Assembly (NCBI GenBank): GCA_963771075.1
Contig: CAVYSE010000003.1
Coordinates: 375,863 to 439,862 of the forward strand
DNA from: a candidate division FCPU426 bacterium
Lineage (GTDB): Bacteria > Oederibacteriota > Muellerivitia > Muellerivitales > Muellerivitaceae
DNA length: 64,000 bases
Direction of reading: 5' to 3'
The notes under the pieces are model-generated. The model was not told where the DNA came from, ran no database searches, and worked only from the letters and a program-made list of their open reading frames with translations. Positions 11,306 through 50,792 of this stretch are shown here, one piece after another; position 1 is the stretch's first letter, and every line of letters begins with the position of its first letter. Both the position numbers and the translations under genes were made by a program.

Positions 11306-11307
11306 GG

Positions 11308-17112: not shown

Positions 17113-17128
17113 GTTGAACTCCTTAAAG

Positions 17129-18525: not shown

Positions 18526-18538
18526 AACTCACCTTTAA

Positions 18539-20265: not shown

Positions 20266-20359
20266 ACCGACCTCCAAATAATTCTTAAAGGAGGTCGGCA
20301 TAGTCCCGATTACCTTTAAGCTTTTAAAAACGGATAATCGGGGCATGCCTTTATCTCCC

Positions 20360-22206: not shown

Positions 22207-22304
22207 AAAACCCTCCATAAACGCCACAGATAAACATCCTTTAACCAAATTGCTTTTGCCTTTGTGTCAAGGATGAGATTTTTAACTATTTATAAAAAGT
22301 TGAC

Positions 22305-22907: not shown

Positions 22908-22928
22908 GCGTCCTGTCAGGCCATATGT

Positions 22929-24656: not shown

Positions 24657-24666
24657 AAATTCTTCA

Positions 24667-25041
24667 TCACGCCATCACCGGTTGGGGTTTGTGCGACAGG
24701 CCCAGGCTAAACCGTTTGCGCCTCTGTACTCTCGCCAGGCTGATTCCCTCGATGAGCATCGAAAGCTCCGCCTGGCTCATCTCCACGCACGTTCCTTCAC
24801 CTTGGCGCATCTCGAAGGTCCCGGCTTCCAGGCGCTTGTACCACAGGCACAACCCATCCCCGCCCCAGTACAACACCTTCAGCCGGTCCCCCCGCCGGTT
24901 GCGGAACACGAACAGGTGCCCACTCAAAGGGTCTTGCCTCATCACCTCACCGGCCAGGGCCGACAGGCCGTCAAACCCCTTGCGCATGTCCGCCGCTCTC
25001 GTACACACAAATACTCGGATGCCCGCCGAGAGGGTCAGCAC
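24667..25041 (-). CDS. tnpB: IS66 accessory protein TnpB
   Basis: DMRKGFDGL..HLFVFRNRRGDRLKVLYW..KRLE. Confidence 0.95.
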   Translation of the reverse strand: MLTLSAGIRVFVCTRAADMRKGFDGLSALAGEVMRQDPLSGHLFVFRNRRGDRLKVLYWGGDGLCLWYKRLEAGTFEMRQGEGTCVEMSQAELSMLIEGISLARVQRRKRFSLGLSHKPQPVMA

Positions 25042-25370
25042 GCCTTTTCCTCCAGGGCTCGGACCAATTCAGCCAACGCCGGGGCGGGCATTTCCCGGTA
25101 CAGCCTCAAAACCCGGCCGTTCAAAAGGGTCAATTCCACAACCGGATGGGTTTCGCCACCCGCAGTCACTACTGAAACGGGCAGGAAGGCCTGGCGACCC
25201 CGAACCACAGGGCTCTGGGGACCGGCCAACCGTCTTTTCCAGGCGTAAAAGCTTGGCGGGCTGATCCGACTTTTACGGCAATAGGCCGATCCGCTCAGGC
25301 CACTACGCTTCCAGGCCCGCAAAACCTCCTCCCACCGCTTTTTATTCCGGAATTTGCTCTGCTTCGCCAT
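25035..25370 (-). CDS. tnpA: IS66 accessory protein TnpA
   Basis: WKRSGLSGSAYCRKSRISPPSFYAWKRRL HTH. Confidence 0.9.
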   Translation of the reverse strand: MAKQSKFRNKKRWEEVLRAWKRSGLSGSAYCRKSRISPPSFYAWKRRLAGPQSPVVRGRQAFLPVSVVTAGGETHPVVELTLLNGRVLRLYREMPAPALAELVRALEEKAC

Positions 25371-25381
25371 GGTTTTCCTCC

Positions 25382-26527
25382 CTAGACAAGATTGGTCTCC
25401 ATGGTGGTTTCTACGGGAGGGTGGCAGGATTGGCTAGATGGTGCAACAAGACGCTTACCCTTCAACGCAGGATGAACAATTTTCCCCTGTTCCAGGTTAA
25501 GCGCATGTTGCAAAACCGGGTCGGCTTCCAAAGCCTTCGGATAGCCCTTATTGGCGATCTTCAAGACATAGGGCAGGGTCGAGTTGGTGAGAGCGTAGGT
25601 AGATGTCATGCCCACGGCGCCAGGGATATTGGTTACGCAATAATGAACTACCCCGTGCTTCTTATAAACCGGAGCGCTGTGGGTAGTGGGGTGGGATGTT
25701 TCCACGCATCCGCCTTGGTCGATGGCCACATCCACAATGACCGAACCAGGTTTCATGGCTTTCACCATGGCTTCGGTGACCAGCCGGGGGGCCTTGGCAC
25801 CTTCCACATATACCGCCCCGATCAACAGGTCCGCATCCGCCACTTCTTCCCTTATGACCCTCCGGTTGGAAACCAGGGTGATCACGTTTTTAGGGAGTAT
25901 TTCTTCCAAATGCCGTAAACGGCTGGGGTTGATATCCAGCACCGAAACCCGGGCGCCGATACCCGCCGCCACCTTGGCCGCGTTGGTGCCCACTGCCCCG
26001 CCCCCTAAAACCACCACCTTGGCGGGCTGAACCCCGGCCACCCCGCCTAAAAGGATGCCCTTACCGCCCATGGACCTTTCCAGGTATTTGGCTCCTTCTT
26101 GGATGGCCATCTTGCCCGCCACTTCGCTCATGGGGGTTAGGAGGGGGTGTTCCCCATCGGGCAAGCAGAGGGTTTCATAGGCCAGGGCGATAATGCCCGA
26201 TTTGATCAGGGCGTGGGTGAGAGCCGGTGCGGCAGCCAGGTGGAAATAGCAGAAAACCAACTGCCCTTTGCGGAGGTATCGGATTTCGGAGGGCTGGGGT
26301 TCCTTAACCTTTAGGATCATCTGGGCCTGGCGGAAAAGGCTGGCCCTTTGGGGAACGATTTGGGCACCCGAATCCCGAAATTCCTTGTCCGAAAGGCCGC
26401 TTCCGGCCCCGGCGCCCTTTTCGATGAGGACCTTGTGCCCGGCCAAGGTTAGTTCCTCCACCCCGGCGGGGACGACCCCTACCCGAAACTCGTTGTCTTT
26501 GATTTCCTTCGGAACCCCGATGATCAT
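25382..26527 (-). CDS. ald: Alanine dehydrogenase, extreme C-terminus replaced by IS66 sequence
   Basis: MIIGVPKEIKDNEFRV, LLTPMSEVAG, GGGAVG and DVAIDQGGCVET. Codons after ..HPALK read into the IS66 end. Confidence 0.95.
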   Translation of the reverse strand: MIIGVPKEIKDNEFRVGVVPAGVEELTLAGHKVLIEKGAGAGSGLSDKEFRDSGAQIVPQRASLFRQAQMILKVKEPQPSEIRYLRKGQLVFCYFHLAAAPALTHALIKSGIIALAYETLCLPDGEHPLLTPMSEVAGKMAIQEGAKYLERSMGGKGILLGGVAGVQPAKVVVLGGGAVGTNAAKVAAGIGARVSVLDINPSRLRHLEEILPKNVITLVSNRRVIREEVADADLLIGAVYVEGAKAPRLVTEAMVKAMKPGSVIVDVAIDQGGCVETSHPTTHSAPVYKKHGVVHYCVTNIPGAVGMTSTYALTNSTLPYVLKIANKGYPKALEADPVLQHALNLEQGKIVHPALKGKRLVAPSSQSCHPPVETTMETNLV

Positions 26528-26647
26528 TAACGGCCCCCTACCGGCTCATGTTTGGCTATTTGATTGTAATCTTTATTCGCGACTCTGCGAAATATAGCCT
26601 GATGGACCCTCCCCCAAAACGGTAAATTTGAGAGACACCTAAACAAT

Positions 26648-26971
26648 CGGTACAAATCGATTTATACCGGTATTTATCCGGTATTTTCATGGTATTAGCC
26701 CGGTATGAATGGCGGTATTTACGGTATAAGCCCGGTATTTGCTAGGTATTAATGGTAGTATGAATGGTATTAGCAGCGGTACAAATGGTATTTGTCCGGT
26801 ATGAACCCGGTATAAATGCGGTATGAGTCGGTATTAGTGGTTGTATAAACGGTATTAGCCCCGGTATGAACGGTATGAGCTCGGTATTAATGGCGGTACA
26901 AATGGTATTAGCGACGGTATAAATGGTATTTGTACGGTATGAATGGTTGTACGGACCAGTTGATTCGGTAC
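26648..26971 (+). repeat. Non-coding array of about 27 co-oriented (C/T)GGTA(T/C) motifs at 9-12 bp spacing
   Basis: Counted directly, e.g. at 26668, 26679, 26690, 26701, 26713, 26722, 26733 ... 26935. Confidence 0.9.
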
Positions 26972-27014
26972 ACGGGATGTATACGGCCAGTTTGGCCCTG
27001 TATACACCCTCGGA

Positions 27015-27707
27015 TTAGCTTCTGTGGTGGCGCCCACCGTGTTTACCGCCAGGTGTCGGGCTGGGGCTAGGCTTGGCAACCGGCTGGGTAACCACTTCCT
27101 CGGTGCCGGTTTTCATCAAATCATCTCCCATAAACCCATTAGCATCGCAAACGTGATAGTGCCCATCTTCTAAATAGACTTGGACCGTCGGGGTCTTACC
27201 TGAACCCTGCCACCACCAATAACCCCGGTTGAAATAAAGCCACCGCTCGGCAGTGGGGTCATGCCACCAAAAACGACCCTCCCGCCAGAGCACCCAATGA
27301 AAGGTGTCACCCATGCGCCAGCCATACCAATTCCGGTCCCCATCACGGTAATGGCAGTAGTTCCACGCATTGTAGGGATGCCAATAATACTTTCCCGAAT
27401 GGCTGTCTTTCTGATCGATCTTGGGAACTTGCTGAACGGCGGCGGGTTCGCCCAGATTGCGCATAGACGGGCCAAGGGGCGCTGACTCTTCGTCATTGAC
27501 CAGCTTCAGGGAGGTGCCATCGTTGTATTTCTTGGGGGGCTTGGGCAACCGAAAATGCGTGTTATCAGCAATCTTGTCTTGAGTCGATAGAACCAGGGGT
27601 TTGGGTAACGATGGCGTAGCTTCCACCCCAGGTAGTTGGTCGGAAGCGAAAACAATAGTTCCTATTCCCAAAAACAACATCCCCATCAATATTCGCCACA
27701 CGTACAT
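27015..27707 (-). CDS. Secreted Trp/Tyr-rich hypothetical protein
   Basis: Signal peptide; WYGW/FWWHD/YWWW aromatic beta repeats. Confidence 0.65.
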   Translation of the reverse strand: MYVWRILMGMLFLGIGTIVFASDQLPGVEATPSLPKPLVLSTQDKIADNTHFRLPKPPKKYNDGTSLKLVNDEESAPLGPSMRNLGEPAAVQQVPKIDQKDSHSGKYYWHPYNAWNYCHYRDGDRNWYGWRMGDTFHWVLWREGRFWWHDPTAERWLYFNRGYWWWQGSGKTPTVQVYLEDGHYHVCDANGFMGDDLMKTGTEEVVTQPVAKPSPSPTPGGKHGGRHHRS

Positions 27708-27815
27708 ATTTTGCCTTTATTCGGATTGTCATCTAGACGTCCTGCAACAAGGAAAGGGTTGGGCCAAAGGGCCAAAACAAGACCCGTAAAAGGAGTATGG
27801 CACGTCTAGACACCC

Positions 27816-29974
27816 ATGAATACACCATCATCCCAAGCAACCACAGTTCAACCAATAAACCCGAAAATCGCGCCTTCCCCGAGTCGGGGGGAATGGGTGG
27901 CGTTTACCATCATCCTGCTGTTGGGCGCGGCCCTGCGCCTCTGGGATCTGGATAAGAACGGAACGGGCAACCCCTATTACGCCTCGGCCGTTCGAAGCAT
28001 GCTGATGAACTGGCACAATTTCTTTTTTGTGTCCTTCGATCCCGTAGGATTCGTGACGGTGGACAAGCCCCCGGTGTCGCTGTGGATTCAAACCGCCTTC
28101 GCCAAACTTTTCGGCTACCGGGGTTTTACCCTGATCTTTCCCCAGGTGCTGGAAGGCTTGGGCACCCTCTCCGTGGTTTATTACCTGGTTCGCAAGCGCT
28201 TCGGCGCGTTCGCCGCCTTGTTCGCGGGTCTGGTCATCGCCCTTTCCCCGGTCAGCGTGGCGGTGGACCGCTACAACAATACGGACGAGTGCCTGGTATT
28301 CGTTATGGTGCTCGCGGCCTGGGCCTTGATTCGGGCGGCTGAAACCGGAAGCCGAAAGTTTCTCTACCTAGCCCTGATATTGGTCGGGATCGGATTCAAC
28401 ACCAAGATGATGGCGGCCTTCGTGGCTCTTCCTGTTTTCTATCTGGTTTACCTGATTGGTTCCCCCATCACTTGGCTCCGGAAAATCTGGGTCCTCGTAA
28501 CCGGAACTCTGATATTGCTGGTCGTGGCCTTGTCCTGGCCATTGGCAGTGGATTTGACACCTCCCGAACAACGCCCCTTCGTGGGAAGCACACAAGATAA
28601 TTCCATGATTAGCCTGTCCCTGGGATGGAACGGATTTCAAAGACTGCTCACCCGTGGACGGCGCGGTTCCCCCCCAATGGCCGGGGAGGCAATTTCCCGG
28701 CGGCTGGCGCCGCGACCAACACCCCGCCCAACGCACCCGCCTCGGTGGGCGACACGAACCATTCGGAAGCCGCAGCCGCGTCCCAGGCCCAGGCACGCCG
28801 CCGAAACGGCGGACCCATGAACAACGGAACCCCGGGTCCCCTTCGTTTGGCGGATCGGAACATGGCAGGCCAGGTGGGTTGGTTTTTTCCCCTGGTCCTG
28901 CTGGGTTTCTGGTCGGCGGCCCGCCGAATCCGTTTGACCTTTCCCCTGGCCCCAAGCCACCAGTCCCTCTTTTTTTGGTTGGGATGGATCTTCATCTACG
29001 GGGCAGTTTTCAGTTTCATGAAGGGGGCCATGCATCCCTATTACCTTGTCCTCATGGTTCCCGCCATCGCCGCCCTGGCGGGGATCGGCGTTCAATCGCT
29101 TTGGAACGACTACCGGGAAGGCCGAATCATCCTTCCGCTCCTGACCCTAGCTCTCACAGCTGGGTGGCAGGCCTTTATCGTGACCCAGTACCCCGATTGG
29201 AAACATCAGCTTTTGCCCATCCTGATGAGCGGGTTACTTTTATCCCTGGCCAGTCTTTTGTTGATTTCCCGTCTGGCCTCTCAAAAGCCCGCCTGGCTCC
29301 GATGGGCTCCCTCAGCCTTTGGCCTGGGGCTCTCGGCCCTTTTCTTCTGCCCCACCTTTTGGGCACTGACCCCGGTCTTGGGTTCGGGCCAATCGGTGCA
29401 AGCCGGTCCTGAGTTACTGGACCCTCGCAGCAGGGGCGGATTGTTTCCAGGGTTCGGCGTGAACTTAAACAATGCCAAGCTGGTCGATTACCTGAAAGCC
29501 CACCAGCAGGGCGAATCCTATCTTTTGGTCGCGCAAAACAGTCAGGTCGTTGCTCCAATCATCATTGAGACCGGCGAGCCGGTGGTGGCCATCGGGGGGT
29601 TCATGGGCGGGGATCCCATTTTGACCGCCAACCAATTCGCCCAGAAGGTTCAAGACGGCCAATTCCGCTACATGCTTTTAAACGCCCCGCCTACGAACCA
29701 GAACGGCAGGGGCCCAGGAGGAAACCCCGGAGGATGGGGTGGACCGGGAAACATGGGAAGGATGGGCGGGGCCCAGGCCGAGATCGCCAAGTGGGTGCGG
29801 GAGCATGGAAAACTCGTGGATGCCGCCCTTTGGAAACCAGCTCTTCCACCGGTAATTCCCGTCGTTCAATCCCCCGCCCCCGGAGGGTTCGGCGGGCGTA
29901 GGGGAGGCATTGCCAACCTGCAACTGTATGATTTGCGTCCGGGCAAAGAGGAAAATAAAGGTTCAAAGGGTTAA
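27816..29974 (+). CDS. ArnT/PMT-family (GT-C, YkcB-like) glycosyltransferase, frameshifted near 28660-28680
   Basis: N-part GNPYYASAVRSM..VTVDKPP..GFNTKM and C-part GTPGPLRL..HPYY..AIGGFMGGDP lie in two overlapping frames. Confidence 0.85.
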
Positions 29975-29983
29975 GTTAATCCA

Positions 29984-31348
29984 GTGAGTTCCAACAATCT
30001 TTTACCCCAAACAACTTTGGTATTGGATGTCGGGGAAAACCTGGATTTCCTGCTCGCCAAACTGAATCAAGTTAATTTGGGAAATAAGCCTTCCTTCGGG
30101 CAAATACTGTTGGCTTCTCCCCCTGGACAAAAAACAAAGATTTTTGCCAAACTCCCGGAAAGCTTTAAACACCTCGAAATAGTGGAAATTCAATCGCTTC
30201 GGCTAGACCTCTTCCCTTTCCTCCATAAACCCTATCTGGCCTATTTGCCATCCGACGCCCCCTATTCACCGCCTCAAATTGATTTTGGCGCGGACCTGGA
30301 GAAGCATCCTCTTTTTATCCAACCTTGGGTTCCTTTTTTAAAAACCTCGGATTCGGAGTGGGCACGCGGGGTTTACCTGTCATTGGGTTGGATTTCCACA
30401 CCCAAGCTTTTGCAGAAAATGGACTTAATAAACGGGTTCTCTCTTCGCGACCTGGAAAGATCCATCCGAAACGCCCACACGGAAATTCCCTACTTTTCCG
30501 CCTCGGCTAGCGAATCCCTCAACGGAAAACCACCCGTTCCGCAGGGCCAGCCAACACTCACAAAAGCATCCAGGGTCTTAGCCCTCGTGCCCCACTTCAA
30601 TTGCGAGGAGTGGCTGGAACAATGTTTGTATTCTCTCGTCCATCAAACCCGCCTACCCGAAAACATCGTCGTTATGGACGATTGTTCAACGCATTCACCG
30701 CTAGAAATCGTAAAAAAATTTCCCTCTGTGGCTCTGTTTCGTTCACCTGAAAATGTGGGCCCCTATCGACTTTTACAATCCATGATTGATCAAACCCAAT
30801 TCGACGGTTATATGTTTCAAGACTCGGACGATTGGTCGAGCCTCGATCGATTAGAATTATTGCTCCGGGAAGCGGAAACCGGATGCGCCGACTGGGTGGG
30901 TTCGCAAGAGATCGTCTATTTCTCGGATGCCATTCACACCCTTCGATATCCCCTGATTCTAAAGGATTCCCCCGAATCGCTCATGCGCTATCCGTTTTGT
31001 TACTCGAGCAGTCTCATTTCAAGGTCGTTTTTCAAACTTTTGGGTGGTTTCGCTTCGGGCCTGCGTTTCAGCGGGGACTTTGAATTTTTTTCCCGGGCAA
31101 TATTCGCGGGAAAAGTGATCAATCTCGACCGTTATTGCTATCACCGGAGAGTCCGGAAAGACTCACTCATTACATCCGAAGAAACAGGGCTCGCAAGCCT
31201 TTCACGCAAGGAAGTCGATTCTCAAATCGAGGTAAAAAAAGCGGCCAATCACGTCCTTAGGTCAAAAGGTTTTGCCCCCCTGCTGGAACCGATCAAGACA
31301 GCCCCGCCCATTCGCTTTCAGCATTTGACCGGGCCCCAATTGATCTAG
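29984..31348 (+). CDS. Glycosyltransferase family 2 protein
   Basis: LVPHFN, VVMDDCS, FQDSDD and GDFEF motifs in the C-terminal half. Confidence 0.85.
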   Translation: MSSNNLLPQTTLVLDVGENLDFLLAKLNQVNLGNKPSFGQILLASPPGQKTKIFAKLPESFKHLEIVEIQSLRLDLFPFLHKPYLAYLPSDAPYSPPQIDFGADLEKHPLFIQPWVPFLKTSDSEWARGVYLSLGWISTPKLLQKMDLINGFSLRDLERSIRNAHTEIPYFSASASESLNGKPPVPQGQPTLTKASRVLALVPHFNCEEWLEQCLYSLVHQTRLPENIVVMDDCSTHSPLEIVKKFPSVALFRSPENVGPYRLLQSMIDQTQFDGYMFQDSDDWSSLDRLELLLREAETGCADWVGSQEIVYFSDAIHTLRYPLILKDSPESLMRYPFCYSSSLISRSFFKLLGGFASGLRFSGDFEFFSRAIFAGKVINLDRYCYHRRVRKDSLITSEETGLASLSRKEVDSQIEVKKAANHVLRSKGFAPLLEPIKTAPPIRFQHLTGPQLI

Positions 31349-31395
31349 TCTTCCAGCCTCATTAAAAACATGTTCGCTTGAAGCACCTATTCTTT

Positions 31396-32499
31396 TTATC
31401 TGGCATGCCGGTTTCGAAATCCGTCCATGAACTCCAAAAGTTGGTTTACGTCTTCCTCCGTTACCGAGTTATAGAGGGATGCCCTTAACCCGCCCAGGGA
31501 TCGATGCCCTTCCAGACCATAAAAACCGGCTCGGGAAGCTTCTTCCAGGAACGTCTTATCCATCTCGGGACTCGGCAGGCGAAAAACCACATTCATCTTC
31601 GACCGGTCTTTCTTTGCGCCATGGACACGGAAGAAATCGGGATGCCGGTCAAGAAGATCATAGAGAGACTGGGCTTTTTTCTCGTTCAAAGCCGCCATTT
31701 TCTCCAAACCCCCGATACGGTCTTTTAACCAGCGGGCAACCAGCAGGGTGACATAAATCGCGAAAACAGGCGGGGTGTTGTAAATGGACCCCATTTTCAC
31801 ATGGTTGCGGTAATCGAGCATGCTGGGCAAGGAATCCGGGGAACCCTTTAAGAGGTCCTCGTGGAGGATCACTAGTGTCATCCCCGCGGGCCCCAGGTTT
31901 TTTTGGGCATGGGCGTAAACGAGGCTGAAGTCGCGAATTTCGAAGGGATAACTTAAAAAGTCGGAGGACATGTCGCAAACGCGCGGAACGCTCTTGGCCC
32001 CGGGCAAATAGTGAAACTGCAGGCCTTCAACCGTTTCATTGGAAACGTAGTGGAAATAAGCGGCCTGGGGGTCGTAGGCAAGCTCTTTTTCTTCCGGCAG
32101 GCGGGTATAACCGCTTCCCTCGCCGTCAAAGATCACCCGTACCGGGCCCTCCAGGCGCGCATCGGGGATGGACTTGGCGCTCCAGTAACCCGTCTTCAGG
32201 TACTCGGCGGTCTTTCCTTTTCCCCGCAGAAGCAGCATGGGGATCATGGAAAACTGGAGGGTGCTTCCCCCTTGGAGCTGAAGCACCTGGTAGTCGGGAG
32301 GAATATTGAGGAGGGACCGGAAGACCGCTTCCGATTCATTGAGAATGGCCTTGAAATAGTCCGAACGGTGGCTGATACCCAGGATGGACTGGCTGGTTCC
32401 AGGGGCCTGAAGGATAGCCTCGCTGGCTTGTTCCAGCACCGCCCGGGGAAGCGCGCCGGGGCCGCCCGAAAAATTGAGACTTGTGTGACTGGCCATCAT
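31396..32499 (-). CDS. serC: Phosphoserine aminotransferase
   Basis: NFSGGP, ISHRS, SNETVEG, DMSSD, AQKNLGPAG, YNTPP and GHRSLGGLRASLYN. Confidence 0.95.
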   Translation of the reverse strand: MMASHTSLNFSGGPGALPRAVLEQASEAILQAPGTSQSILGISHRSDYFKAILNESEAVFRSLLNIPPDYQVLQLQGGSTLQFSMIPMLLLRGKGKTAEYLKTGYWSAKSIPDARLEGPVRVIFDGEGSGYTRLPEEKELAYDPQAAYFHYVSNETVEGLQFHYLPGAKSVPRVCDMSSDFLSYPFEIRDFSLVYAHAQKNLGPAGMTLVILHEDLLKGSPDSLPSMLDYRNHVKMGSIYNTPPVFAIYVTLLVARWLKDRIGGLEKMAALNEKKAQSLYDLLDRHPDFFRVHGAKKDRSKMNVVFRLPSPEMDKTFLEEASRAGFYGLEGHRSLGGLRASLYNSVTEEDVNQLLEFMDGFRNRHAR

Positions 32500-33509
32500 G
32501 GCACCCCTATCTTTTTTTTCTTGGAAGCCTCCAGGACATCTTCCAGCAGTTTGCGACTAAACCGGCCGTCACGAAATGGAAAAAGAGTGGCATTGGGGGT
32601 GAAGGTGAACTCGCTGAAATAGACCCCGTCGGGCAAATCGTACAGATCCACCCGAACGAAATCGAAGGGGCCGGAAAGTTCGGAAGCTATTTGGAGCATC
32701 TCCCCCCAATGGGCGGGTTTTTCGGGCAAAGGATCGGGCAAGGGGAACTGGTTCGGGATCGGGATGTGACGGTGGTCCGGCACGTTGAAGAGGGCCTGGC
32801 GGTGGTCGGCGAAGCGCCCCTCGTCGTACTGGCAAAAAAGTACCTTTCCTCGGGATGAATAGAAACGGAAATCGGGCGGGGGGTGGTACCACAGGCCGTC
32901 TTTTCCGGAAGGGATGGGGGAAGGCAGGCACTCTTCCACCAGGATCTTGGGACGCAAACCCCGATACTGTCCCTCGTATTCGTTCCGGAAGTAATCGCGA
33001 CGGGCGAAGCGGAACATTTCGAGTGTCGGTTGAACGACGACTTGGACGTTCGCCCCGCCCAGGAAAATCACTCCTCCCGAGGTATGGGTCGGCTTGGCCA
33101 CCGCGTTTTTCCCGACGAAAGGATAGATGAACTTTCCCACCTGCTCCAGGGGGGTGTCAGGATAGAGGGTCAGCACCGAGAGGGTGCGGGCGATTTGAAT
33201 CCTCGGAGAGAGGGAAACCGCAATGAGCTTGGCGCTTTCTTTGTCGACGCAAGTCTTTTCAAATGGGGTCCAAGGGCCGGTCATACGTTGGAAGATATAA
33301 TCTTCGAAGGTGGCCTGGGCCGAGAAGGGGTCGATCGGCAGTCTTTGGTGCTTTCGTTTGAAATTCGAGCGGGCCAAGAGGCGAGTGGCTCCCGGGTCAC
33401 CCCGAAGGGCAAAAAACAACAAAACCCGCTGGACCCATCGTTTCAAATTGAAAATCCGTTCATCTGGATATGGAGATTTTTTTATTACCTTCCACAGGAT
33501 TAGACGCAC
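32496..33509 (-). CDS. TupA-like ATP-grasp fold amidoligase
   Basis: DK, KPTHTSG, PKILVEE, DFRFY, FDFVRVDLY and YFSEFTFTP. Confidence 0.85.
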   Translation of the reverse strand: MRLILWKVIKKSPYPDERIFNLKRWVQRVLLFFALRGDPGATRLLARSNFKRKHQRLPIDPFSAQATFEDYIFQRMTGPWTPFEKTCVDKESAKLIAVSLSPRIQIARTLSVLTLYPDTPLEQVGKFIYPFVGKNAVAKPTHTSGGVIFLGGANVQVVVQPTLEMFRFARRDYFRNEYEGQYRGLRPKILVEECLPSPIPSGKDGLWYHPPPDFRFYSSRGKVLFCQYDEGRFADHRQALFNVPDHRHIPIPNQFPLPDPLPEKPAHWGEMLQIASELSGPFDFVRVDLYDLPDGVYFSEFTFTPNATLFPFRDGRFSRKLLEDVLEASKKKKIGVP

Positions 33510-33538
33510 GACTTAGAAAAGGGTGCCACCCTGACGGT

Positions 33539-34255
33539 TTATTCCACGATCTCGAATTTTCCAATAACCTGTTCTTCAGTCAGCGCGTCATAGTGCCACC
33601 ATTCGTGGCGCAACTGGCGAAAACCCGCGCCCACCATGGCGCTTCTTAAGATCATCCGATGGTCGATTTGGATCTGAGTCAACTTCCCTTCTTTTAAAAG
33701 CCGGCTTTCCAGTTGAGGTTCGGAAAGAGGAGTGAAACCGTCAAAAGGAGCGCCCATGTCGACTAATTTTCCCTGGGGGTCCAGAAGCCCGATATCCAGG
33801 GCGAAACCATAGTTATGCATGGAACCCTTGTCCGGATCGGCGACATATTTTTGATGGGACGTTCCCTTGACCACGGCCCACAGTTTTCGTTGGACCGAAC
33901 GGGGCCGTAGCGCGTCAAACACGATGAACTTGTAGCCCGGGTTGTTTTTACGGAGAGTCTCAATGGCCTTACGCAACTTTTCGGCCGTAATTTTATGAAT
34001 GTAGCATTTGTTGTAGGGCCCGTAGAGGTTCTTGCGGGTGAAATTGTCGGTGGTTCCATACTTAAGATTCACGGTCACGCCTTGCCAATGGGTGATCTCG
34101 ACGAAATTCGGGCTGGCGGCCAGGTTTTTCATGGAATCCTCGATGGAGTGGGTTTGGGATAGGGCCGATAGCGGGAGCAGAAAAAAGCCGAACAGCAGGA
34201 AAAGGCCCAGGGAACGTTTCTTCAAGGGATCACGTCCCGGGACCTGGCATTTCAA
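33539..34255 (-). CDS. ddpX: D-alanyl-D-alanine dipeptidase (M15D, VanX/DdpX family)
   Basis: KYGTTDNF, FDALRP, GSMHNYGFALD and EWWHYD. Confidence 0.88.
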   Translation of the reverse strand: MKCQVPGRDPLKKRSLGLFLLFGFFLLPLSALSQTHSIEDSMKNLAASPNFVEITHWQGVTVNLKYGTTDNFTRKNLYGPYNKCYIHKITAEKLRKAIETLRKNNPGYKFIVFDALRPRSVQRKLWAVVKGTSHQKYVADPDKGSMHNYGFALDIGLLDPQGKLVDMGAPFDGFTPLSEPQLESRLLKEGKLTQIQIDHRMILRSAMVGAGFRQLRHEWWHYDALTEEQVIGKFEIVE

Positions 34256-34746
34256 GACTTCTTCTTGGGCATCTCATCTTCTTTGCCTTTTTCCGGTGTC
34301 GTATAGAGGCCGTTTTCGTATTTGAGGATCGTCGTGTTCTTGGGAACGTTGTGGTATTCGAGGTTGATGTCCTCATCCGTGAGCGTCACCTCGTAATAAT
34401 AGTCCAGCTTCTTGTTGAACCCCAAAATCAGCTTGCGAATAAAGGTGAAGTCCTCCTTCACCGCGTCCGCGTCCTCCAAGCTCCCGATCAAGGTAACATC
34501 CAGCGTTTCCTCGTCCGGGTTATAAATGATGGTAACCCGAATCGGCTCGATTTTTGAATTAGGATATTTTGTCTGGGGCTTCAACAGCATGGCCTGGGTG
34601 GTCGCCGTCACCATGGTCTGGAGATAACCGGCCACCCTTTCCCCCACGGGAACGCTGTCCCAGGCCCCCAAATTTTCATTCGCGGCTTGGCAGGTCACGG
34701 CCCATAGGAGGGTCCCTAAAATAATGCAGGATTGAATGAGTCTCAT
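34252..34746 (-). CDS. Secreted hypothetical protein
   Basis: Signal peptide; paralog of the broken upstream gene. Confidence 0.65.
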   Translation of the reverse strand: MRLIQSCIILGTLLWAVTCQAANENLGAWDSVPVGERVAGYLQTMVTATTQAMLLKPQTKYPNSKIEPIRVTIIYNPDEETLDVTLIGSLEDADAVKEDFTFIRKLILGFNKKLDYYYEVTLTDEDINLEYHNVPKNTTILKYENGLYTTPEKGKEDEMPKKKS

Positions 34747-35012
34747 GGAGTTTTGATCGGTTCCGAGACAGGCGTTGGGCTCGTTTCAGGTTCGGGAGTT
34801 TTGGCGGATTCTTCCGAAATAACCTTTCCCTCTTTTAAACGCAAAACAATTTTTCCCGTTTTGGTGTTGAGATAGGCCAGCGAAAGATCGTTTTCTTTCA
34901 ATTCGATCCCGTAATCATGGTTGATCTTTTTCCCCATGGAAAGCAGGGTCCTCTGGATCTTTTCCAGTAGGGCCTGGACGTATTTGGAATCACCCTGGTT
35001 TCCGATCACGGA
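34743..35012 (-). pseudogene. 3' fragment of a paralog of 34252..34746; its 5' half is lost at repeat 1
   Basis: VIGNQGDSKYV..KKINHDYGIELKENDLSLAYLN aligns with LIGSLEDADAV..KKLDYYYEVTLTDEDINLEYHN. The apparent start MALPKRMVCN is translated repeat. Confidence 0.7.
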
Positions 35013-35066
35013 GTTGCACACCATCCTTTTTGGGAGGGCCATGTGCAGGCAAAAATTACATGATTG

Positions 35067-35177
35067 TCAACCTTTTAACAAAGCCAATTGATATATTTTA
35101 TCCCGGACTTTCCAACAGACTTTCTCCCGGACTTTCCACCAGACTTTCCCCCAGACTTTATCTCGAATGTTTTTCAT
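35067..35177 (-). CDS. Small phage-like protein with VW-x-K repeats (inside spacer 1)
   Basis: MKNIRDKVWGKVWWKVREKVCWKVRDKIYQLALLKG, encoded by a 12-bp tandem repeat; ATGA overlap with the upstream ORF. Confidence 0.5.
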   Translation of the reverse strand: MKNIRDKVWGKVWWKVREKVCWKVRDKIYQLALLKG

Positions 35178-35318
35178 TGTATTTTATCTCGAATATCAAC
35201 TATTATTATGCGCCCTATTGGAAGCCAAAGATTAGATGCACAATCAAAACCAGCCTGGGAACGTGTTGTTTTTACCACAAATTTTGCCCATGCGTCAAAA
35301 CAAAGTTTATGCAAAATA

Positions 35319-35843
35319 TTATTCATCTTCGAAAGCCAATTCTTTCCGAGATTGCGCCACATTCTTGCTTTCAAGGTAATTGCTTATAAGGAATCCAGTT
35401 GCGAGGTCTGTGAAAATATTAGCCTTATCCCCCAGAATGGTGTCTGTTACTTCCATCCCTATTAAAGAATACAGAAGCATAGACCAAAATCCATATTTCT
35501 TGGCGCAAGGCTTAGGCGTGAACCACCCTTTTCTTTTCAAAAACATGTCTACGGTGATGTGTAATTGATTCTTGTATTTGGAATGTTTTTTATAGAGACT
35601 TTGCTTGATATGCCTCCAATCACCAGCATTATCAAGACTTTCTGTGTTCCAAGTCTCATTTTTCTCAATTTCTCCACTTAAGGCATAGTTTTCAAGGATA
35701 TCGTAGAAAAAACGGTTTATTGGCCCGTTAAACATGATTTTTTTAGTGTAATAGTTTTTCATGATAACGTGAGTATAGAATTTTTTGGTGAGAGAGGACA
35801 TACCTTCTTTGGTAAGGTCGAAGTCTTCAAGTGTTGGTGCCAT
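35319..35843 (-). CDS. Hypothetical phage-like protein (inside spacer 1)
   Basis: 174-aa ORF, strong AAGGAGG RBS, AT-rich, coupled to small downstream ORFs. Confidence 0.6.
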   Translation of the reverse strand: MAPTLEDFDLTKEGMSSLTKKFYTHVIMKNYYTKKIMFNGPINRFFYDILENYALSGEIEKNETWNTESLDNAGDWRHIKQSLYKKHSKYKNQLHITVDMFLKRKGWFTPKPCAKKYGFWSMLLYSLIGMEVTDTILGDKANIFTDLATGFLISNYLESKNVAQSRKELAFEDE

Positions 35844-35985
35844 TGCTAATGCCTCCTTAAGTTTTCAAGTAAACGCAGTGTCCGAAAGTAAAGCGAGAAT
35901 ATGTGTTCTTTATTCTTATTCACTTTATCACGTATCCTGCAAAAATACGTTGCACACCATCCTTTTTGGGAGGGCCATGTGCAGG

Positions 35986-36243
35986 CTTAAATCAGTGGGA
36001 TGGGGTGCTGTGAGCGGGGTTCTGAGTCACTACGGTGGAAAACTGTTCGATAAATATTTGAAGAATCCGTTAAGCTCCGCTGGAAGAACTTTGGGGAGAG
36101 AATTTAACACTGGGACGACAGCCGTTGAAAAACGGGCATTTACCATTGGAGCTAAAAAAGCTGTGGCGGAAACGGGACACGAAGTGGGGGGAGCTTTAAT
36201 TTCGTCTGCGCCATCCCTTTTGGATAAAACACCCAAAAAATAA
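35986..36243 (+). pseudogene. C-terminal gene fragment (Gly/Ala-rich, polymorphic-toxin-tip-like) in spacer 2
   Basis: Open frame from the repeat edge LKSVGWGAVSGVLS.. to stop, with no start of its own. Confidence 0.4.
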
Positions 36244-36339
36244 ACCGACGAATCCATGAGCTGCAACCACGCCGAACGTGGGTAATTGAAAGTTGGTTTC
36301 ATTCTTGAAAAGTGTGAATCATGGTTGAGGGAGGGGAAA

Positions 36340-36738
36340 ATGATATTTTTAAAATATGCCATTGTAGTTTTGGTTGCCTTGGCGGTGAGCGCGGCCGAAT
36401 TTGGTTTGTTCTATGTGCAGGGATTGGCTCAAAGAAGAAAGAATGCTATTTATAGAAGACTAATGATCGTAGTACTTGGTTTAGGATCCTGGGCCGGACT
36501 TATGTTGGGTGCTCCTATTTGCGATTTTTTGGGGATTCAAGATTCGAATAGCAGGCTTTATTTTTTTTGTTTTTGGTCGGTGCCAGTGCTGCTTGGAATG
36601 GGTTTTGGAGCGTACTACGTTTTGTGTGTCATGAAGCCATTTGCACATCGTGGATTGTGTCATGAATGTGGATTTGTGAATGAGAAGGAAGTCAGGGTTT
36701 GCGGGAGATGTGGGCATAAGATGCCTAAAGAAAAATAG
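36340..36738 (+). CDS. Three-TM membrane protein with C-terminal zinc ribbon (spacer 2)
   Basis: GGAGG RBS; hydrophobic helices; CHECG..CGRCG. Confidence 0.65.
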   Translation: MIFLKYAIVVLVALAVSAAEFGLFYVQGLAQRRKNAIYRRLMIVVLGLGSWAGLMLGAPICDFLGIQDSNSRLYFFCFWSVPVLLGMGFGAYYVLCVMKPFAHRGLCHECGFVNEKEVRVCGRCGHKMPKEK

Positions 36739-36786
36739 GAACTCTTATGGTTGCACACCATCCTTTTTGGGAGGGCCATGTGCAGG

Positions 36787-37345
36787 TTCCAAATCGCCGA
36801 ACTGGTTGAAGCAAAACAGGGGATGGTAACAGGTACAGCCAAAGTAACCGTTGTACAAGGAACCTTCCTGATCCCCGTAGGTCTCGCTCACTGAGCTATC
36901 CATGTCGAGGATGATCTGTTGTATGGGCTTTTTCTCATGGACTCCATCGATCCATTGGCCCGATAAGTCAATTAAGCCGGTCAAATTCTTCGACTGGGTG
37001 AGGACCTCCGTCTCGAAACGACCCATCTGGCTGGTGGAGGCGGCCTGTTTTTCCCTGGCCCGTCCTCCGATCACATGCCGCATCGCAGGATCGACACTCA
37101 GGCGTTCTGCGTCGTTGGTATCCTCATAACCGGCCAAGCGGCTGAATACCGACTGGCGAAGAAGCGCCGTCATCGTGTGTTGCGTATTCTTACCGGTCCG
37201 CCGATCCCAAAGGATGTTTTCTGTTCTGTCAGTCAAACCAAAAGCTTCGTCGAGTTCGCGATAGGGAATCAACCCGCCATCGGAAGTGACCTTCGCACCA
37301 TGGAACTCCAACTTGAGGCCAGGATCAAAAACCACCCGAAGAGCG
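36787..37345 (-). pseudogene. Internal fragment of an IS1380-family transposase (entire spacer 3)
   Basis: ALRVVFD..LEFHGAKVTSDGGL..LAGYEDTNDAERL..LDMDSS..YHPLFCFNQFGDLE, cut at both ends exactly at repeats; no IS ends. Confidence 0.88.
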
Positions 37346-37382
37346 GTTGCACACCATCCTTTTTGGGAGGGCCATGTGCAGG

Positions 37383-37486
37383 AAAATTCTTTCGATATCC
37401 TTAAATTCGTGCGTATACCCAAAATCACCAAGATGGTAAACACTATCACCCTTCTTGACCATTTTATTCCAATTTTCTATTAAAAG
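37383..37486 (-). pseudogene. Internal fragment of a calcineurin-like metallophosphoesterase (entire spacer 4)
   Basis: LIENWNKMVKKGDSVYHLGDFG motif. Confidence 0.75.
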
Positions 37487-37658
37487 GTTGCACACCATCC
37501 TTTTTGGGAGGGCCATGTGCAGGGCAGGCATTCCAGCGTCGCCGTCTGGCACTCCTGCAATGTGCCCAAGCTCGTCGAGGTGCTCGACTCTTTCAGGTAC
37601 ACCGGCGCGTTGGTGGTGTTGCACACCATCCTTTTTGCGACAGGCATGTGCAGGATCA

Positions 37659-38066
37659 TCATTTCGAGGCTATCAATCGACTCGAAAAGCAACCAACGAT
37701 ATATATAACAGCGGCTATTAGTAGGGAGGTAGTAAGAAAAATTTTAAAAAAAGTAAAACTTTCAGGATCATTGAACCCCTGCGAAGAAATAAGCAAACAA
37801 TATAAAAAGTAACTCAAACATTGAACAATCACAGCGAAGCAAACAACGGTCATTAACCCCACAAAAAAATGAATGTTTTTTCCAAAAATTAATTTTTGAA
37901 GGAGTGGATACGACAACCCTTCAAAAAAACATAAACCATACATGAAATTTTCAGTGAGAAAGATTGTCGAGAAGAAATTTCTACCAAAGCAATATGCCAA
38001 GCTAACAAGTATGCAAAAAGAACCAAGAAAAAAAACGTTAAATAAAATCAATTTGCTCGTTCTCAT
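37659..38066 (-). CDS. Four-TM membrane protein, immunity-like (spacer 6)
   Basis: 135 aa, very hydrophobic, AT-rich; ATGA-coupled to the upstream fragment. Confidence 0.55.
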   Translation of the reverse strand: MRTSKLILFNVFFLGSFCILVSLAYCFGRNFFSTIFLTENFMYGLCFFEGLSYPLLQKLIFGKNIHFFVGLMTVVCFAVIVQCLSYFLYCLLISSQGFNDPESFTFFKIFLTTSLLIAAVIYIVGCFSSRLIASK

Positions 38067-38336
38067 TGATCAACATGAGGCGTAATTGCCGTCCCTTTGT
38101 TATCATTCGTGAAATTCTTATACTGTTCGTTCGGATTGGTATAAGGACCTTTAACCCCATATAGCGATCCAAGCGGTGGTTGCGCTGACTGAGGGAAAGT
38201 AGCTGACACCTGTCCCGCATTAGCAATTTTGCCAGCTAGATCAGCACAATTTTCCGAAGTACATCCACCATTTTTATCGGTTTGCGCGCTCACACTGTAA
38301 GGCTTATTAAAATTTTTATTACCGAACGACTTCATT
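38063..38336 (-). pseudogene. C-terminal gene fragment, Rhs/polymorphic toxin tip-like (spacer 6)
   Basis: Open frame from the repeat edge, with ..PYSV..SENCADLAGKIANAG..TNPN, followed by a coupled TM gene. Confidence 0.4.
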
Positions 38337-38373
38337 GTTGCACACCATCCTTTTTGGGAGGGCCATGTGCAGG

Positions 38374-43676: not shown

Positions 43677-44330
43677 TCATTGCCCCCCTCTAATTGGCCA
43701 AACCGGAGTTCCGTGATTCTTAAAAAAACCAGCGGTTAAAACCCCTCGTTTCCTTGCTTTGGACCCAGTCTTTTTCAGTTCTTTCTCGATCTTTGTCCTT
43801 TCGGCTTCATAAATTCCTTGAACTTCTAAGTCCTCATCCAGGATCACCAAAAGGACGCTGTCCCAAGTCATTTCGGTCTTGATCGCCCCAATTTTTTGGG
43901 TCTTTTTGGAATCCTTTGGGTAAGCCCGGCTTTTGATCTGAATGCGTTTAACATCATTCCCGCGGACCCAAAGGGCGTCAAACCCAGCCGTTCGGGCTTC
44001 GGCTAGGATCAACCCAAGCATATGTGCGGCCCAAAATTCAGCCACTTCCCCAGTGATTCCCAGAGGTTTCCCGGTGACGGCACGGTATTGCTTGTCTAGG
44101 ACGACCGCCTGGTCAAGGAGGGTCTTAATGGCCACAGGATCTGCCCCGGCTCCAGGATACCTGAGCCCGGCGGCCGCCAAAGCGTTGTTCCAACTTCCGA
44201 AGGTCTTTTCGGATGAAACCGCCTTAAAAAGTTTTGGGTCCTTTTCGGCAACATTTTTCGCCGAAAGGTCGATCTCCTGGTCGTTGAGCTTTTTAAGTTC
44301 TTGGAGAAGGTCGGAAAGTGAAGGTTTCAT
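43677..44330 (-). CDS. Restriction-endonuclease-like (DUF6998-like PD-(D/E)xK) protein with N-terminal homing-endonuclease-associated repeat
   Basis: FGSWNNALAAAGL; ITGEVAEF..AGFDA..RIQIKSR. Confidence 0.65.
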   Translation of the reverse strand: MKPSLSDLLQELKKLNDQEIDLSAKNVAEKDPKLFKAVSSEKTFGSWNNALAAAGLRYPGAGADPVAIKTLLDQAVVLDKQYRAVTGKPLGITGEVAEFWAAHMLGLILAEARTAGFDALWVRGNDVKRIQIKSRAYPKDSKKTQKIGAIKTEMTWDSVLLVILDEDLEVQGIYEAERTKIEKELKKTGSKARKRGVLTAGFFKNHGTPVWPIRGGQ

Positions 44331-45025
44331 GGTTTTGCCAATTTCTGAATCCACTTTATCCTTTGCTCAGCTGTGGGCATGTGCAGTTCCAATACCTTTT
44401 TACGGAACGACCGAAGGTAGTTCGACATGGAAAAAACCAAAAATTTAGGGAAGTCCTTCTTTCTAAATGAGTAGTCGGAGTATTCAAACAATGCTTCCGG
44501 CTTCCCTTCTGGGTGGACTGCATCCCAAAAACAGATTACCGGGGTAACTTTGACCGGGCCTTTTTGGCCCTTTGGGATCACCATTATTTCGAGGACTTTT
44601 TCCATTGAGTCGCCCTTAAATCGCTTGCGTTTTTGGTCCCATTTATTGTTCCAACTTCTAATTCGGTGCGTCTTCAAAGAACCCTGGTCAGCGTTTATCT
44701 CCAGCTTCTTACCCCCTATTGCATGAGCAGACCAGTTCTTGATCTCTACCTGGTAAAGATTCACCCTCTTTCCGTTGGGGGCTTTCTCCAACAACCACCT
44801 GTCCAGGCGGTGGCCTTTATTTGTTCCATGGCTCGGTGTTTCTGGGGTGTTTGGATCTTTCATTAGGACTTCGGTCTTTATTCCAGATTCTTCCAGGAAA
44901 TAATTTTGAAGAAGAGCAATTCCAAGGTCTTCCCCCATAACCCCAACAATGGCCGAAGTGTGGTGTTGGCTATCCGGAGGTTCCTCATCAAAGAAATGGA
45001 GGAGGTCTTTTACTTTGATTTTCAT
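44327..45025 (-). CDS. Hypothetical PD-(D/E)xK nuclease-like protein
   Basis: GE..LDRW..QVEIK pattern; coupled to its neighbours. Confidence 0.5.
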   Translation of the reverse strand: MKIKVKDLLHFFDEEPPDSQHHTSAIVGVMGEDLGIALLQNYFLEESGIKTEVLMKDPNTPETPSHGTNKGHRLDRWLLEKAPNGKRVNLYQVEIKNWSAHAIGGKKLEINADQGSLKTHRIRSWNNKWDQKRKRFKGDSMEKVLEIMVIPKGQKGPVKVTPVICFWDAVHPEGKPEALFEYSDYSFRKKDFPKFLVFSMSNYLRSFRKKVLELHMPTAEQRIKWIQKLAKP

Positions 45026-45813
45026 GGCTTCCCCTCGGTTAGTTTCACTTTTAGGATCAACCCTTTCGAATCATCATCCCCCACCTTATTCACTATCCGG
45101 TCCACTGGCCAGGATTGCATCTTGGCGGCCGGGAAGGGCTTTAAAAGGGTCTTGAGGATCCCCGGGTCCTGGAGCTGAAGATCCAGCCAGGCGTCGTAGT
45201 TCTTGGGGTCCAGGATTACCGGCATCCGGTCGTGGATCTTCTCCATTAGGGGATTAGCCTCGGTGGTGATGATGGTGCAGGATTCTAGGACGTCCCCTTC
45301 TTTGTATTTCTTTCCTCCGAGGTTGAGTGGCCACGAAACCGGCTTGAGGGGTTTTCCAGCCTTTTCGGCTTTTTCTAAGTCTCTCTCGTCTTCCATCCAA
45401 CGGACTTTCCAGGATTCATAAAGGCCGGCACAGGCAAAAGGTTCTTGGTCCTTCATGCTGAAGTAGTAGGGTTGGGAGGGTTTAACCGATCGGTCCCACT
45501 CATAAAAGCCGTCCATGATGACCAGGCAACGCATTTTCTTGAAGGCTCGCTTGAATGAGGGCTTCTCCGCGACCGAATCGGCCCGGGCATTCATCGTGTG
45601 GTAAGCGATTTTGGTGTTCTTGGCCCAATAAGGGACGAGGCCCCAATAGTCCCGCTTAATGACCCGCTCTTTCTTCTCTGGATCGACCAGGACGACCGGA
45701 ATTCGGGCGGTGGGGGCGATGTTGTAGTGTTCCTCGAAAGACTCGAAGAGGGAGGCTTGGAACTGTTTGGCGAGCTTGGGAGAAGGGGTTTTAACTGCGA
45801 AACGGCCGCACAT
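45022..45813 (-). CDS. SOS response-associated peptidase (SRAP/YedK/HMCES family)
   Basis: Start MCGRF at 45813; YNIAP, NARAD, GFYEW and IHDRMPVIL. Confidence 0.93.
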   Translation of the reverse strand: MCGRFAVKTPSPKLAKQFQASLFESFEEHYNIAPTARIPVVLVDPEKKERVIKRDYWGLVPYWAKNTKIAYHTMNARADSVAEKPSFKRAFKKMRCLVIMDGFYEWDRSVKPSQPYYFSMKDQEPFACAGLYESWKVRWMEDERDLEKAEKAGKPLKPVSWPLNLGGKKYKEGDVLESCTIITTEANPLMEKIHDRMPVILDPKNYDAWLDLQLQDPGILKTLLKPFPAAKMQSWPVDRIVNKVGDDDSKGLILKVKLTEGKP

Positions 45814-48325: not shown

Positions 48326-48350
48326 GTAAGCGTCCTGTCAGGCCATATGT

Positions 48351-50078: not shown

Positions 50079-50088
50079 AAATTCTTCA

Positions 50089-50463
50089 TCACGCCATCAC
50101 CGGTTGGGGTTTGTGCGACAGGCCCAGGCTAAACCGTTTGCGCCTCTGTACTCTCGCCAGGCTGATTCCCTCGATGAGCATCGAAAGCTCCGCCGGGCTC
50201 ATCTCCACGCACGTTCCTTCACCTTGGCGCATCTCGAAGGTCCCGGCTTCCAGGCGCTTGTACCACAGGCACAACCCATCCCCGCCCCAGTACAACACCT
50301 TCAGCCGGTCCCCCCGCCGGTTGCGGAACACGAACAGGTGCCCACTCAAAGGGTCTTGCCTCATCACCTCACCGGCCAGGGCCGACAGGCCGTCAAACCC
50401 CTTGCGCATGTCCGCCGCTCTCGTACACACAAATACTCGGATGCCCGCCGAGAGGGTCAGCAC
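50089..50463 (-). CDS. tnpB: IS66 TnpB
   Basis: Near-identical to 24667..25041. Confidence 0.95.
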   Translation of the reverse strand: MLTLSAGIRVFVCTRAADMRKGFDGLSALAGEVMRQDPLSGHLFVFRNRRGDRLKVLYWGGDGLCLWYKRLEAGTFEMRQGEGTCVEMSPAELSMLIEGISLARVQRRKRFSLGLSHKPQPVMA

Positions 50464-50792
50464 GCCTTTTCCTCCAGGGCTCGGACCAATTCAGCCAACG
50501 CCGGGGCGGGCATTTCCCGGTACAGCCTCAAAACCCGGCCGTTCAAAAGGGTCAATTCCACAACCGGATGGGTTTCGCCACCCGCAGTCACTACTGAAAC
50601 GGGCAGGAAGGCCTGGCGACCCCGAACCACAGGGCTCTGGGGACCGGCCAACCGTCTTTTCCAGGCGTAAAAGCTTGGCGGGCTGATCCGACTTTTACGG
50701 CAATAGGCCGATCCGCTCAGGCCACTACGCTTCCAGGCCCGCAAAACCTCCTCCCACCGCTTTTTATTCCGGAATTTGCTCTGCTTCGCCAT
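50457..50792 (-). CDS. tnpA: IS66 TnpA
   Basis: Identical protein to 25035..25370. Confidence 0.9.
   Translation of the reverse strand: MAKQSKFRNKKRWEEVLRAWKRSGLSGSAYCRKSRISPPSFYAWKRRLAGPQSPVVRGRQAFLPVSVVTAGGETHPVVELTLLNGRVLRLYREMPAPALAELVRALEEKAC

Follow-up and report, generated by a model that had tools for sequence, protein, structure and literature searches.

An Array of Repeats with Long and Uneven Inserts

What enzyme sets near-identical repeats around DNA segments that differ widely in length and share no sequence? The question is raised by a 64,000-nucleotide stretch (the window) from a candidate division FCPU426 bacterium (GenBank assembly GCA_963771075.1, contig CAVYSE010000003.1, positions 375,863 to 439,862), in which seven co-oriented 37-bp repeats, akin to those of CRISPR arrays, bound mutually unrelated inserts of 899, 764, 559, 104, 94, and 682 bp with GC contents of 0.37, 0.44, 0.54, 0.32, 0.63, and 0.37. 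Six repeats are identical and the sixth in order has four differing positions; a previous interpretation made without database searches (the sequence-only reading) had described this layout, and all of it proved accurate. From comparison with related genomes and metagenome loci, we propose that such arrays are very probably the product of an effector-less Cas1–Cas2 integrase, which would lack a spacer-length ruler while keeping CRISPR target choice and repeat duplication.

Read on the minus strand, the repeat is predicted to fold with a terminal stem (−12.9 kcal/mol; z, −2.3). An Rfam scan gave no match near gathering score, and viral contigs held one 19-nt match only and no full repeat. No cas gene was found among the 62 window open reading frames (ORFs) scanned, and none had been noted next to the array. 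The inserts had been taken for foreign gene fragments cut mid-gene at the repeat edges. The mid-gene cuts stand for insert 3 (at both ends), insert 4, and the left flank, whereas inserts 1, 2, and 6 each hold one whole ORF and are not mere fragments. Nor is insert 3 foreign: it is 100% or 99.8% identical to sequence on contigs C7, C8, and C12 of the genome carrying the window (G000), where the insertion sequence (IS) IS1380 is intact, and to sequence in G004 and G044, two of the five genomes of the same family (G001, G002, G004, G014, and G044) named here. It lacks the IS ends.

The Same Repeat Follows a cas1–cas2 Module

G000 is 96.7% complete with 3.2% contamination and belongs to a family with nonreduced, 4.4-Mb genomes. 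It holds 30 copies of the repeat on 11 of its 28 contigs, 29 with at most nine mismatches and one cut by a contig start; because reversed-pattern controls gave no match in 99 genomes, chance is excluded. Seven co-oriented copies extend across 77 kb of C8. Six G000 copies have a common flank on one side, which on C1 consists of a 22-bp leader, a 111-aa gene (44320–44655), and a 346-aa gene (44652–45692), the leader lying between the 111-aa gene and a repeat (44261–44297) that differs from the window repeat by one base. In the other five copies the common flank includes the leader and ends inside the small gene, 51–223 bp counted from the repeat.

The 346-aa protein is Cas1 (TIGR00287, E 2e-71, above cut-off), although every subtype model scores below its own cut-off; the best subtype profiles, I-G and I-D, are both far under theirs, and the nearest solved Cas1 structures are 4n06 and 7cr6. 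Residues E172, H232, and E247, which we take to be the Cas1 catalytic positions, are invariant across 29 aligned relatives. The 111-aa protein has a weak Pfam Cas2 match (E 0.006), and its predicted structure (predicted local distance difference test score, 72; last 34 residues unreliable) matches Cas2 structures best (best E 1.2e-4), the top 16 listed ranks being Cas2 proteins or entries taken to be Cas2. We read the gene product as a divergent Cas2 with a C-terminal extension. The near-identical repeat 22 bp after this pair agrees with the suggestion of the sequence-only reading that an atypical CRISPR adaptation system acts on the window array in trans.

No effector accompanies the module: none of 84 ORFs (at least 170 aa, in set ranges around cas1 at 15 loci) matched an effector model, the other matches among them being to reverse transcriptase (G044), RecD-like, and other defence models. 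The reverse transcriptase gene of G044 lies about 4.5 kb from one cas1–cas2 copy. G000 has no match to Cas12f/TnpB-type (PF07282), repeat-associated mysterious protein (RAMP), Cas4, or PF01881 Cas6 models; this genome-wide search did not take in the Cas9, large Cas12, or Cas13 families. The array-bearing G004 (99% complete) has none of the Cas12f/TnpB-type, RAMP, Cas4, PF01881 Cas6, or Cas3 proteins, and Cas4 is likewise missing from G044. A link to type V-F or VI-B effectors, which the repeat ends had suggested, finds no support in G000, which is devoid of a Cas12f/TnpB-type domain (Cas13 falling under the limit just given), and a type V-F link was rejected more widely, with no PF07282 match in G001, G002, G004, or G044 and one below cut-off in G014. 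The Cas3 and second Cas1 of G000 belong to a separate type I-E locus (C3, about 181,800–197,500) with cas1, cas2, cas3, and 44 repeats.

Distribution of the Repeat and of Its Cas1 Clade

The repeat is present in 9 of 31 family genomes and in none of 68 other genomes of the phylum. The eight other genomes have the same arrangement with different inserts. This Cas1, at 96–100% identity (96–99% across the four genera represented), occurs in 5 of the 31 family genomes, and all five have repeats; the complete cas1–cas2–leader–repeat unit was found in G004, G014, and G044 as well as in G000. Three full-length modules, one with an in-frame stop, and a captured fragment are distributed over contigs C3, C15, and C16 of G044.

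Outside the family, the closest Cas1 proteins have 83% and, next, about 70% identity; those with a name come from Patescibacteria (57–70%). A tree built from 49 selected rows (29 homologous proteins and 20 loci) places all long-insert rows within one 39-row clade (support 100/98), with G000 nested among rows named Patescibacteria, a position that would fit transfer of cas1 from that group. Among 80 metagenome loci, 52 were usable (identity and downstream sequence of at least 40% and 450 nt, respectively), and 40 of these have a 37- to 38-nt repeat of like build 340–470 nt after cas1 (one doubtful), mostly preceded by a leader ending GGCT or GGCC. A second repeat within 100 nt was found in none of the 37 clade loci with room for one; five have it at 183–7,672 nt. 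More distant Cas1 loci (at most 37% identity) have ordinary arrays in 10 of 19 cases.

Throughout the Cas1 clade the repeat keeps a fixed distance after cas2 while its middle sequence varies, and this argues against the best of the alternative explanations, that the repeat serves another enzyme (an IS200-like Y1 transposase, a conjugative-element integrase, or a serine recombinase) as its recombination site or element end and was merely donated by cas1–cas2. That explanation gains from the Y1 transposase genes within 2 kb of 6 of the 14 G000 repeat clusters (vs. 2.3% of the genome), from the truncation of several leader or repeat copies at the end motif of Y1 elements, from the nearness of arrays to conjugation genes, and from four genomes that have repeats and in which this Cas1 was not found. 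The window array, however, has no Y1 gene within 67 kb, in the fetched stretches of relatives only 5 of 36 clusters are near one, and donor sequences carry no site at either cut. The window does encode a tyrosine integrase (7351–8451), 26 kb from the array and next to conjugation genes. On balance we consider action of another enzyme very improbable, and the unknown recombinase that the sequence-only reading had entertained is now unlikely.

Insert Lengths, Donors, and Ends

Cas1–Cas2 is the textbook molecular ruler. The gap set comprised 120 repeats from nine genomes, with relatives represented by fetched stretches, neighbors less than 50 kb apart, and three longer G000 gaps excluded. Its 73 gaps range from 30 to 45,717 bp (median, 1,792); 15 exceed 5 kb, 71 lie between co-oriented repeats, and two repeats are inverted. 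Just two gaps (30 and 38 bp) fall within 25–50 bp, and the other 71 support the proposed lack of a length ruler. The two leader-adjacent gaps of G004 measure 26,097 and 24,728 bp and include metabolic genes, and the leader-proximal insert of G000 (3,477 bp) ends within a dnaX gene 74% identical to the resident dnaX. A 45.7-kb gap between two repeats on C8 holds most of one conjugative-element-like region.

Counting as a donor any uninterrupted match of at least 93% in the available sequence, 24 of 207 junctions have one, and no junction is common to two genomes. Four inserts each have a contiguous donor to which both ends map, with a base-for-base match as far as the repeat edge on either side: window insert 3 (559 bp), a 7,247-bp insert in G001 that corresponds to window positions 26831–34077, a 379-bp insert in G002, and an 885-bp insert in G044 whose sequence lies inside a G004 insert. 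No base bias indicative of a protospacer adjacent motif (PAM) was seen outside the cuts in a small sample of 13 and 11 donors.

Insert ends do carry a bias of their own. Counted inward from the repeat edge, G occupies position 3 at 2/92 and 6/117 ends (8/209 pooled) vs. 23% in the background, with A or T favored at position 4 and T at position 5; the resulting motif is present in 53% of ends vs. 26% inside. It is the same on both ends, including those of long inserts. Within the window, 8 of 14 ends carry the motif and none has G at position 3. Because the motif also occurs in the outer flanks of arrays and of single repeats (18/26 and 22/48, respectively), these flanks look like enzyme-made joints too. 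The bias is probably the footprint of one enzyme gripping each end separately. As a trait of the whole clade it was rejected, distant members having the motif at 14 of 45 ends, vs. 25% expected.

Alternatives to Integration of Long Inserts

Both the lengths and the ends speak against a second alternative, in which ordinary short-spacer Cas1–Cas2 made the arrays and the gaps became long later through IS insertion and recombination between arrays. The 30- and 38-bp gaps and the mixture of repeat variants within arrays would suit it, and the type I-E array of G000 does have one long gap caused by an IS (1,055 bp, interrupting one spacer and present also in a long insert on C27). That same type I-E array nevertheless keeps a 59- to 64-nt period in 42 of 43 steps; 71 of 73 gaps here are outside the spacer range; the four donor-mapped inserts are contiguous to both edges, insert 3 without IS ends; and the end bias marks both ends of long inserts. 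We judge later enlargement of short spacers to be very unlikely. The type I-E Cas1 was also considered as the source of the arrays and rejected, since its locus carries a different repeat at even spacing, with spacers that match nothing else in the available sequence apart from the IS in one gap.

A third alternative would make the 37-mer a miniature inverted-repeat transposable element (MITE), inserted singly and clustered by chance or at a hot spot. Copies are indeed scattered over the contigs noted above, several of them singly, and a symmetric A/T bias in the flanks is what a target preference could give. Yet flanking duplications do not exceed chance (89 of 118 copies have none and 24 have one base), in each of the three copies traced on both sides the two flanks have separate origins, and 71 of 73 neighbors are co-oriented, with a fixed position after cas2. 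A dispersed MITE or IS end, which the sequence-only reading had named as the finding that would overturn it, is thus ruled against by missing target duplications and noncontiguous flanks, and we rate it less probable still than enlarged spacers. Least credible of all is an assembly chimera or adapter artefact, for although G000 contigs break at repeated elements and no junction of the window array is bridged by any read or contig piece among the matches listed for the sequencing runs whose DNA pieces were compared with the window (X1–X4), the repeat recurs, with different inserts and a leader, in eight other genomes and in independent metagenome contigs, and natural repeat variants track with lineages.

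Several observations count against a Cas1–Cas2 integrase as the source of the arrays. Besides the unbridged junctions, no leader was found for the window array; the four repeat-bearing genomes in which this Cas1 was not found are 89–99% complete; 12 of the 52 usable clade loci have no repeat motif; 183 of 207 junctions have no donor in the available sequence; and some long gaps were enlarged by later IS insertion, as in a 1,891-bp gap on C27. The end bias was not seen in distant clade members, and its pooled p-values (1e-11, 3e-8, and 5e-10 for positions 3, 4, and 5) are overstated because the genomes are related and not independent samples. Against the alternatives weighed above, an effector-less Cas1–Cas2 integrase nonetheless remains very probable.

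A Proposed Mechanism and the Origin of Satellite Arrays

The candidate integrase would consist of the products of cas1 and the Cas2-fold gene that stand directly before the 22-bp leader and repeat. The inserts themselves are contiguous pieces of other DNA (IS elements, conjugative-element DNA, chromosomes of relatives, and the cas locus itself) with neither a PAM nor shared terminal repeats. To judge from the end bias, each insert end is probably gripped separately, as a transposase grips two ends; by analogy with known Cas1 chemistry, the two 3′ ends would then attack the two edges of the repeat, and repair would duplicate it. The expected effect is homology-independent uptake of incoming DNA, including whole genes, rather than guide RNA immunity.

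That the module's own DNA was integrated is indicated by G044, where a repeat is directly followed by cas1 cut near codon 104, cas2, the leader, and another repeat. Repeat-bearing pieces of other arrays would be captured in the same way, and the expected traces are present: the repeat variant changes between neighbors at 7 of 16 gaps shorter than 250 bp vs. 3 of 57 others, and the two inverted repeats fit as well. Such capture explains the variant at repeat 6, which is the one that follows the intact module in G014, and this repeat may, together with inserts 5 and 6 on either side, form a single captured piece of 813 bp.

We take the window array for a satellite; it lies far from cas1, next to conjugation genes. 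In both G001 and G002 its main repeat variant comes after a leader that is truncated, and for many truncated leaders the breakpoint is the terminal motif of an IS200-like Y1 element. Of the two histories considered, we lean toward the array having been built at a mobile leader–repeat copy and later separated from the leader; somewhat less probably, it was built in place, in trans, on a leaderless repeat. Two further gene types were seen in such surroundings. Y1 transposase genes with a DnaA-type C-terminal helix-turn-helix occur near repeat clusters on C1, C3, C5, C6, C15, and C27 of G000, and long ParB-like genes, 90–98% alike in part, lie just past four truncated leaders (L010:2020–4397, L012:436–2589, L014:14747–16525, and L015:13314–15842).

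A wider proposal, which we hold in even balance, is that this is a CRISPR-derived gene-capture system acquired from Patescibacteria. Casposase-like two-end integration would place arbitrary DNA at a 37-bp site without homology or terminal repeats, in lengths from 30 bp to tens of kilobases (almost entire conjugative elements at the upper end), and mobile leader–repeat seeds would serve as landing pads filled in trans, giving an integron-like exchange of genes.

Features of the Window

Table 1. Array, flanks, and conjugative region of the window (plus-strand numbering from the first letter of the window)
Feature	Position	Strand	Basis
Integrative-conjugative-element-like backbone	7351–22248	−	Tyrosine integrase, TPR-GGDEF, VirB4-like ATPase, VirB6-like protein; similar genes on C8, C12
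Left flank: IS66 and block of chromosomal-type genes (9.6 kb) that breaks off mid-gene at repeat 1	22904–35012		Similarity to G014, G001
Repeat 1, 37 bp	35013–35049	−	Leader-to-array reading direction taken from cas2–leader–repeat order on G000 C1
Insert 1, 899 bp, GC 0.37	35050–35948		174-aa ORF 35319–35843 (minus), no known family; 190-nt piece identical in run X4
Repeat 2	35949–35985	−	Sequence match
Insert 2, 764 bp	35986–36749		3′ end of one gene and whole 150-aa ORF; identical pieces in runs X1, X2, X3
Repeat 3	36750–36786	−	Sequence match
Insert 3, 559 bp	36787–37345	−	Inner piece of IS1380 transposase gene; Pfam DDE_Tnp_1_4; both ends mapped to intact copies
Repeat 4	37346–37382	−	Sequence match
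Insert 4, 104 bp	37383–37486	−	Open frame throughout; phosphoesterase gene piece, PHROG 547, E 2.6e-7
Repeat 5	37487–37523	−	Sequence match
Insert 5, 94 bp, GC 0.63	37524–37617		Sequence only
Repeat 6, variant with 4 differences	37618–37654	−	Same variant follows intact cas1–cas2–leader in G014; leader after it in run X2
Insert 6, 682 bp	37655–38336	−	3′ part of one ORF and whole 135-aa ORF 37659–38066
Repeat 7, without leader after it	38337–38373	−	Sequence match
Right flank: low-GC accessory DNA, begins inside ORF at repeat 7	38374–64000		SRAP, AbiTii, SPFH/NfeD, IS66, IS256, IS21

The ORF of insert 1 scored below 0.9 against a protein atlas, a lead only, and the same insert contains a 12-nt tandem repeat at 35097–35156. 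The ORF of insert 2 (36286–36738, plus strand) encodes a membrane protein with a weak zinc-ribbon match. Insert 6 had no match in a phage collection, and the best 10 of 190 plasmid records matching the array cover the IS1380 piece only. The window variant of the repeat supplies an in-frame ATG and no stop to frames 34743–35042 and 37325–37624, so that interrupted genes acquire new start codons or are joined to others across repeats. Selection of a stop-free repeat for gene fusion was considered, the window variant being stop-free (5% of shuffles), but was rejected as a general feature because the commonest variant has a stop. A promoter scan of the array yielded fewer promoters than in shuffles, and the RNA runs contain only 0.09–0.11 of the words searched for.

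The DNA beyond the first and last window repeats is probably also insert, the left flank being probably a large one whose far repeat was lost. A span of 11.7 kb (22901–34637), with IS66 and genes for alanine dehydrogenase, a glycosyltransferase, a serC-like protein, and D-Ala-D-Ala dipeptidase, is 99.9% identical in G014, which belongs to a different genus, and the part of it that appears in G001 is there a complete, repeat-bounded insert. An X3 contig spans 34118–35013 and continues into 1,341 letters of other sequence (15 letters in an X2 contig). A degenerate tandem repeat at 26689–26951 contains two independent insert ends (G001 and G044). A single repeat 70 kb to the left of the array was considered as the partner of repeat 1 and found unlikely, with ordinary chromosomal genes in between. 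To the right, neither a further repeat nor a leader was found up to the contig end.

Conjugative-element-like regions in which TPR-GGDEF genes lie beside VirB4-like genes occur in the window and on G000 C8 (60–80 kb) and C12 (7–18 kb); that of the window has three related, partly palindromic intergenic sites of 55 nt (11905–11959, 17994–18048, and 20261–20315). IS copies in the window (22904–25458, 48326–50880, 53352–54709, and 61196–64000) comprise two IS66, an IS256-family element, and IS21 elements. The contig-terminal IS21 also starts C12 and lies near the start of C8, and the join is ambiguous.

Relation to Known Systems

We found no description of a long-insert Cas1–Cas2 system in a literature search whose coverage was thin for subscription papers and took in no supplements; the consulted part of PMC13059738 treats other CRISPR loci of Patescibacteria and does not describe such a system. 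Standard CRISPR finders, expecting short and even spacing, would probably miss these arrays. If the proposal holds, a natural clade with kilobase inserts at one site would illustrate how the ruler can disappear and would make the proposed casposase-to-CRISPR transition directly testable in reverse; genes would have a route of uptake independent of homology and of element ends, which here would have moved 99.9% identical blocks between genera; and a site-specific integrase made of two proteins, accepting long DNA whatever its ends, could be useful for genome writing and molecular recording. According to the part of PMC8390005 consulted, spacer insertion is a transposition of the cut-and-paste kind in which the repeat is duplicated and the second strand transfer is ruler-like, and in PMC6977970, likewise consulted in part, Cas2 binding is proposed to have turned the two-end casposase reaction into single-spacer integration, the two paths being perhaps not exclusive. 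A return to two-end integration would be the reversal of that proposed path.

With CRISPR adaptation modules the system shares a Cas1 with conserved catalytic residues, a Cas2 fold, the order cas1–cas2–leader–repeat, and co-oriented 37-bp hairpin repeats that bound inserts. Unlike those modules, it has inserts from 30 bp to at least 26 kb that are neither short nor uniform, no PAM, no effector beside the module, no Cas4 (G000, G004, and G044), a leader of only 22 bp, a divergent Cas2 with a C-terminal extension, and many satellite arrays. With casposons (casposase, Cas1-solo) it would share a Cas1-family enzyme that inserts a long DNA by both its ends at one site, with duplication of the target. 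Its inserts, however, lack terminal inverted repeats, their ends being arbitrary donor sequence with a three-base bias only; the window inserts encode neither Cas1 nor a family B polymerase, cas1 lying outside the array; the target duplication is 37 bp rather than about 14; Cas2 is present; and the Cas1 scores as a CRISPR Cas1 (TIGR00287).

Integrons and clusters of attC sites lacking integron integrases (CALINs) are accessory-gene arrays between repeats, with an integrase able to act in trans and satellite arrays without an integrase. The arrays described here are similarly gene arrays separated by repeats, with satellites far from the proposed integrase, but their repeats are near-identical rather than variable attC sites, and their inserts are cut at arbitrary points within genes and run in both orientations. 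Neither an IntI, for which no genome-wide search was made, nor any sign of circular cassettes was seen. The system thus resembles CRISPR adaptation in its target and a casposase in its cargo, and it departs in a defining trait from each of these, as it does from integrons and MITEs.

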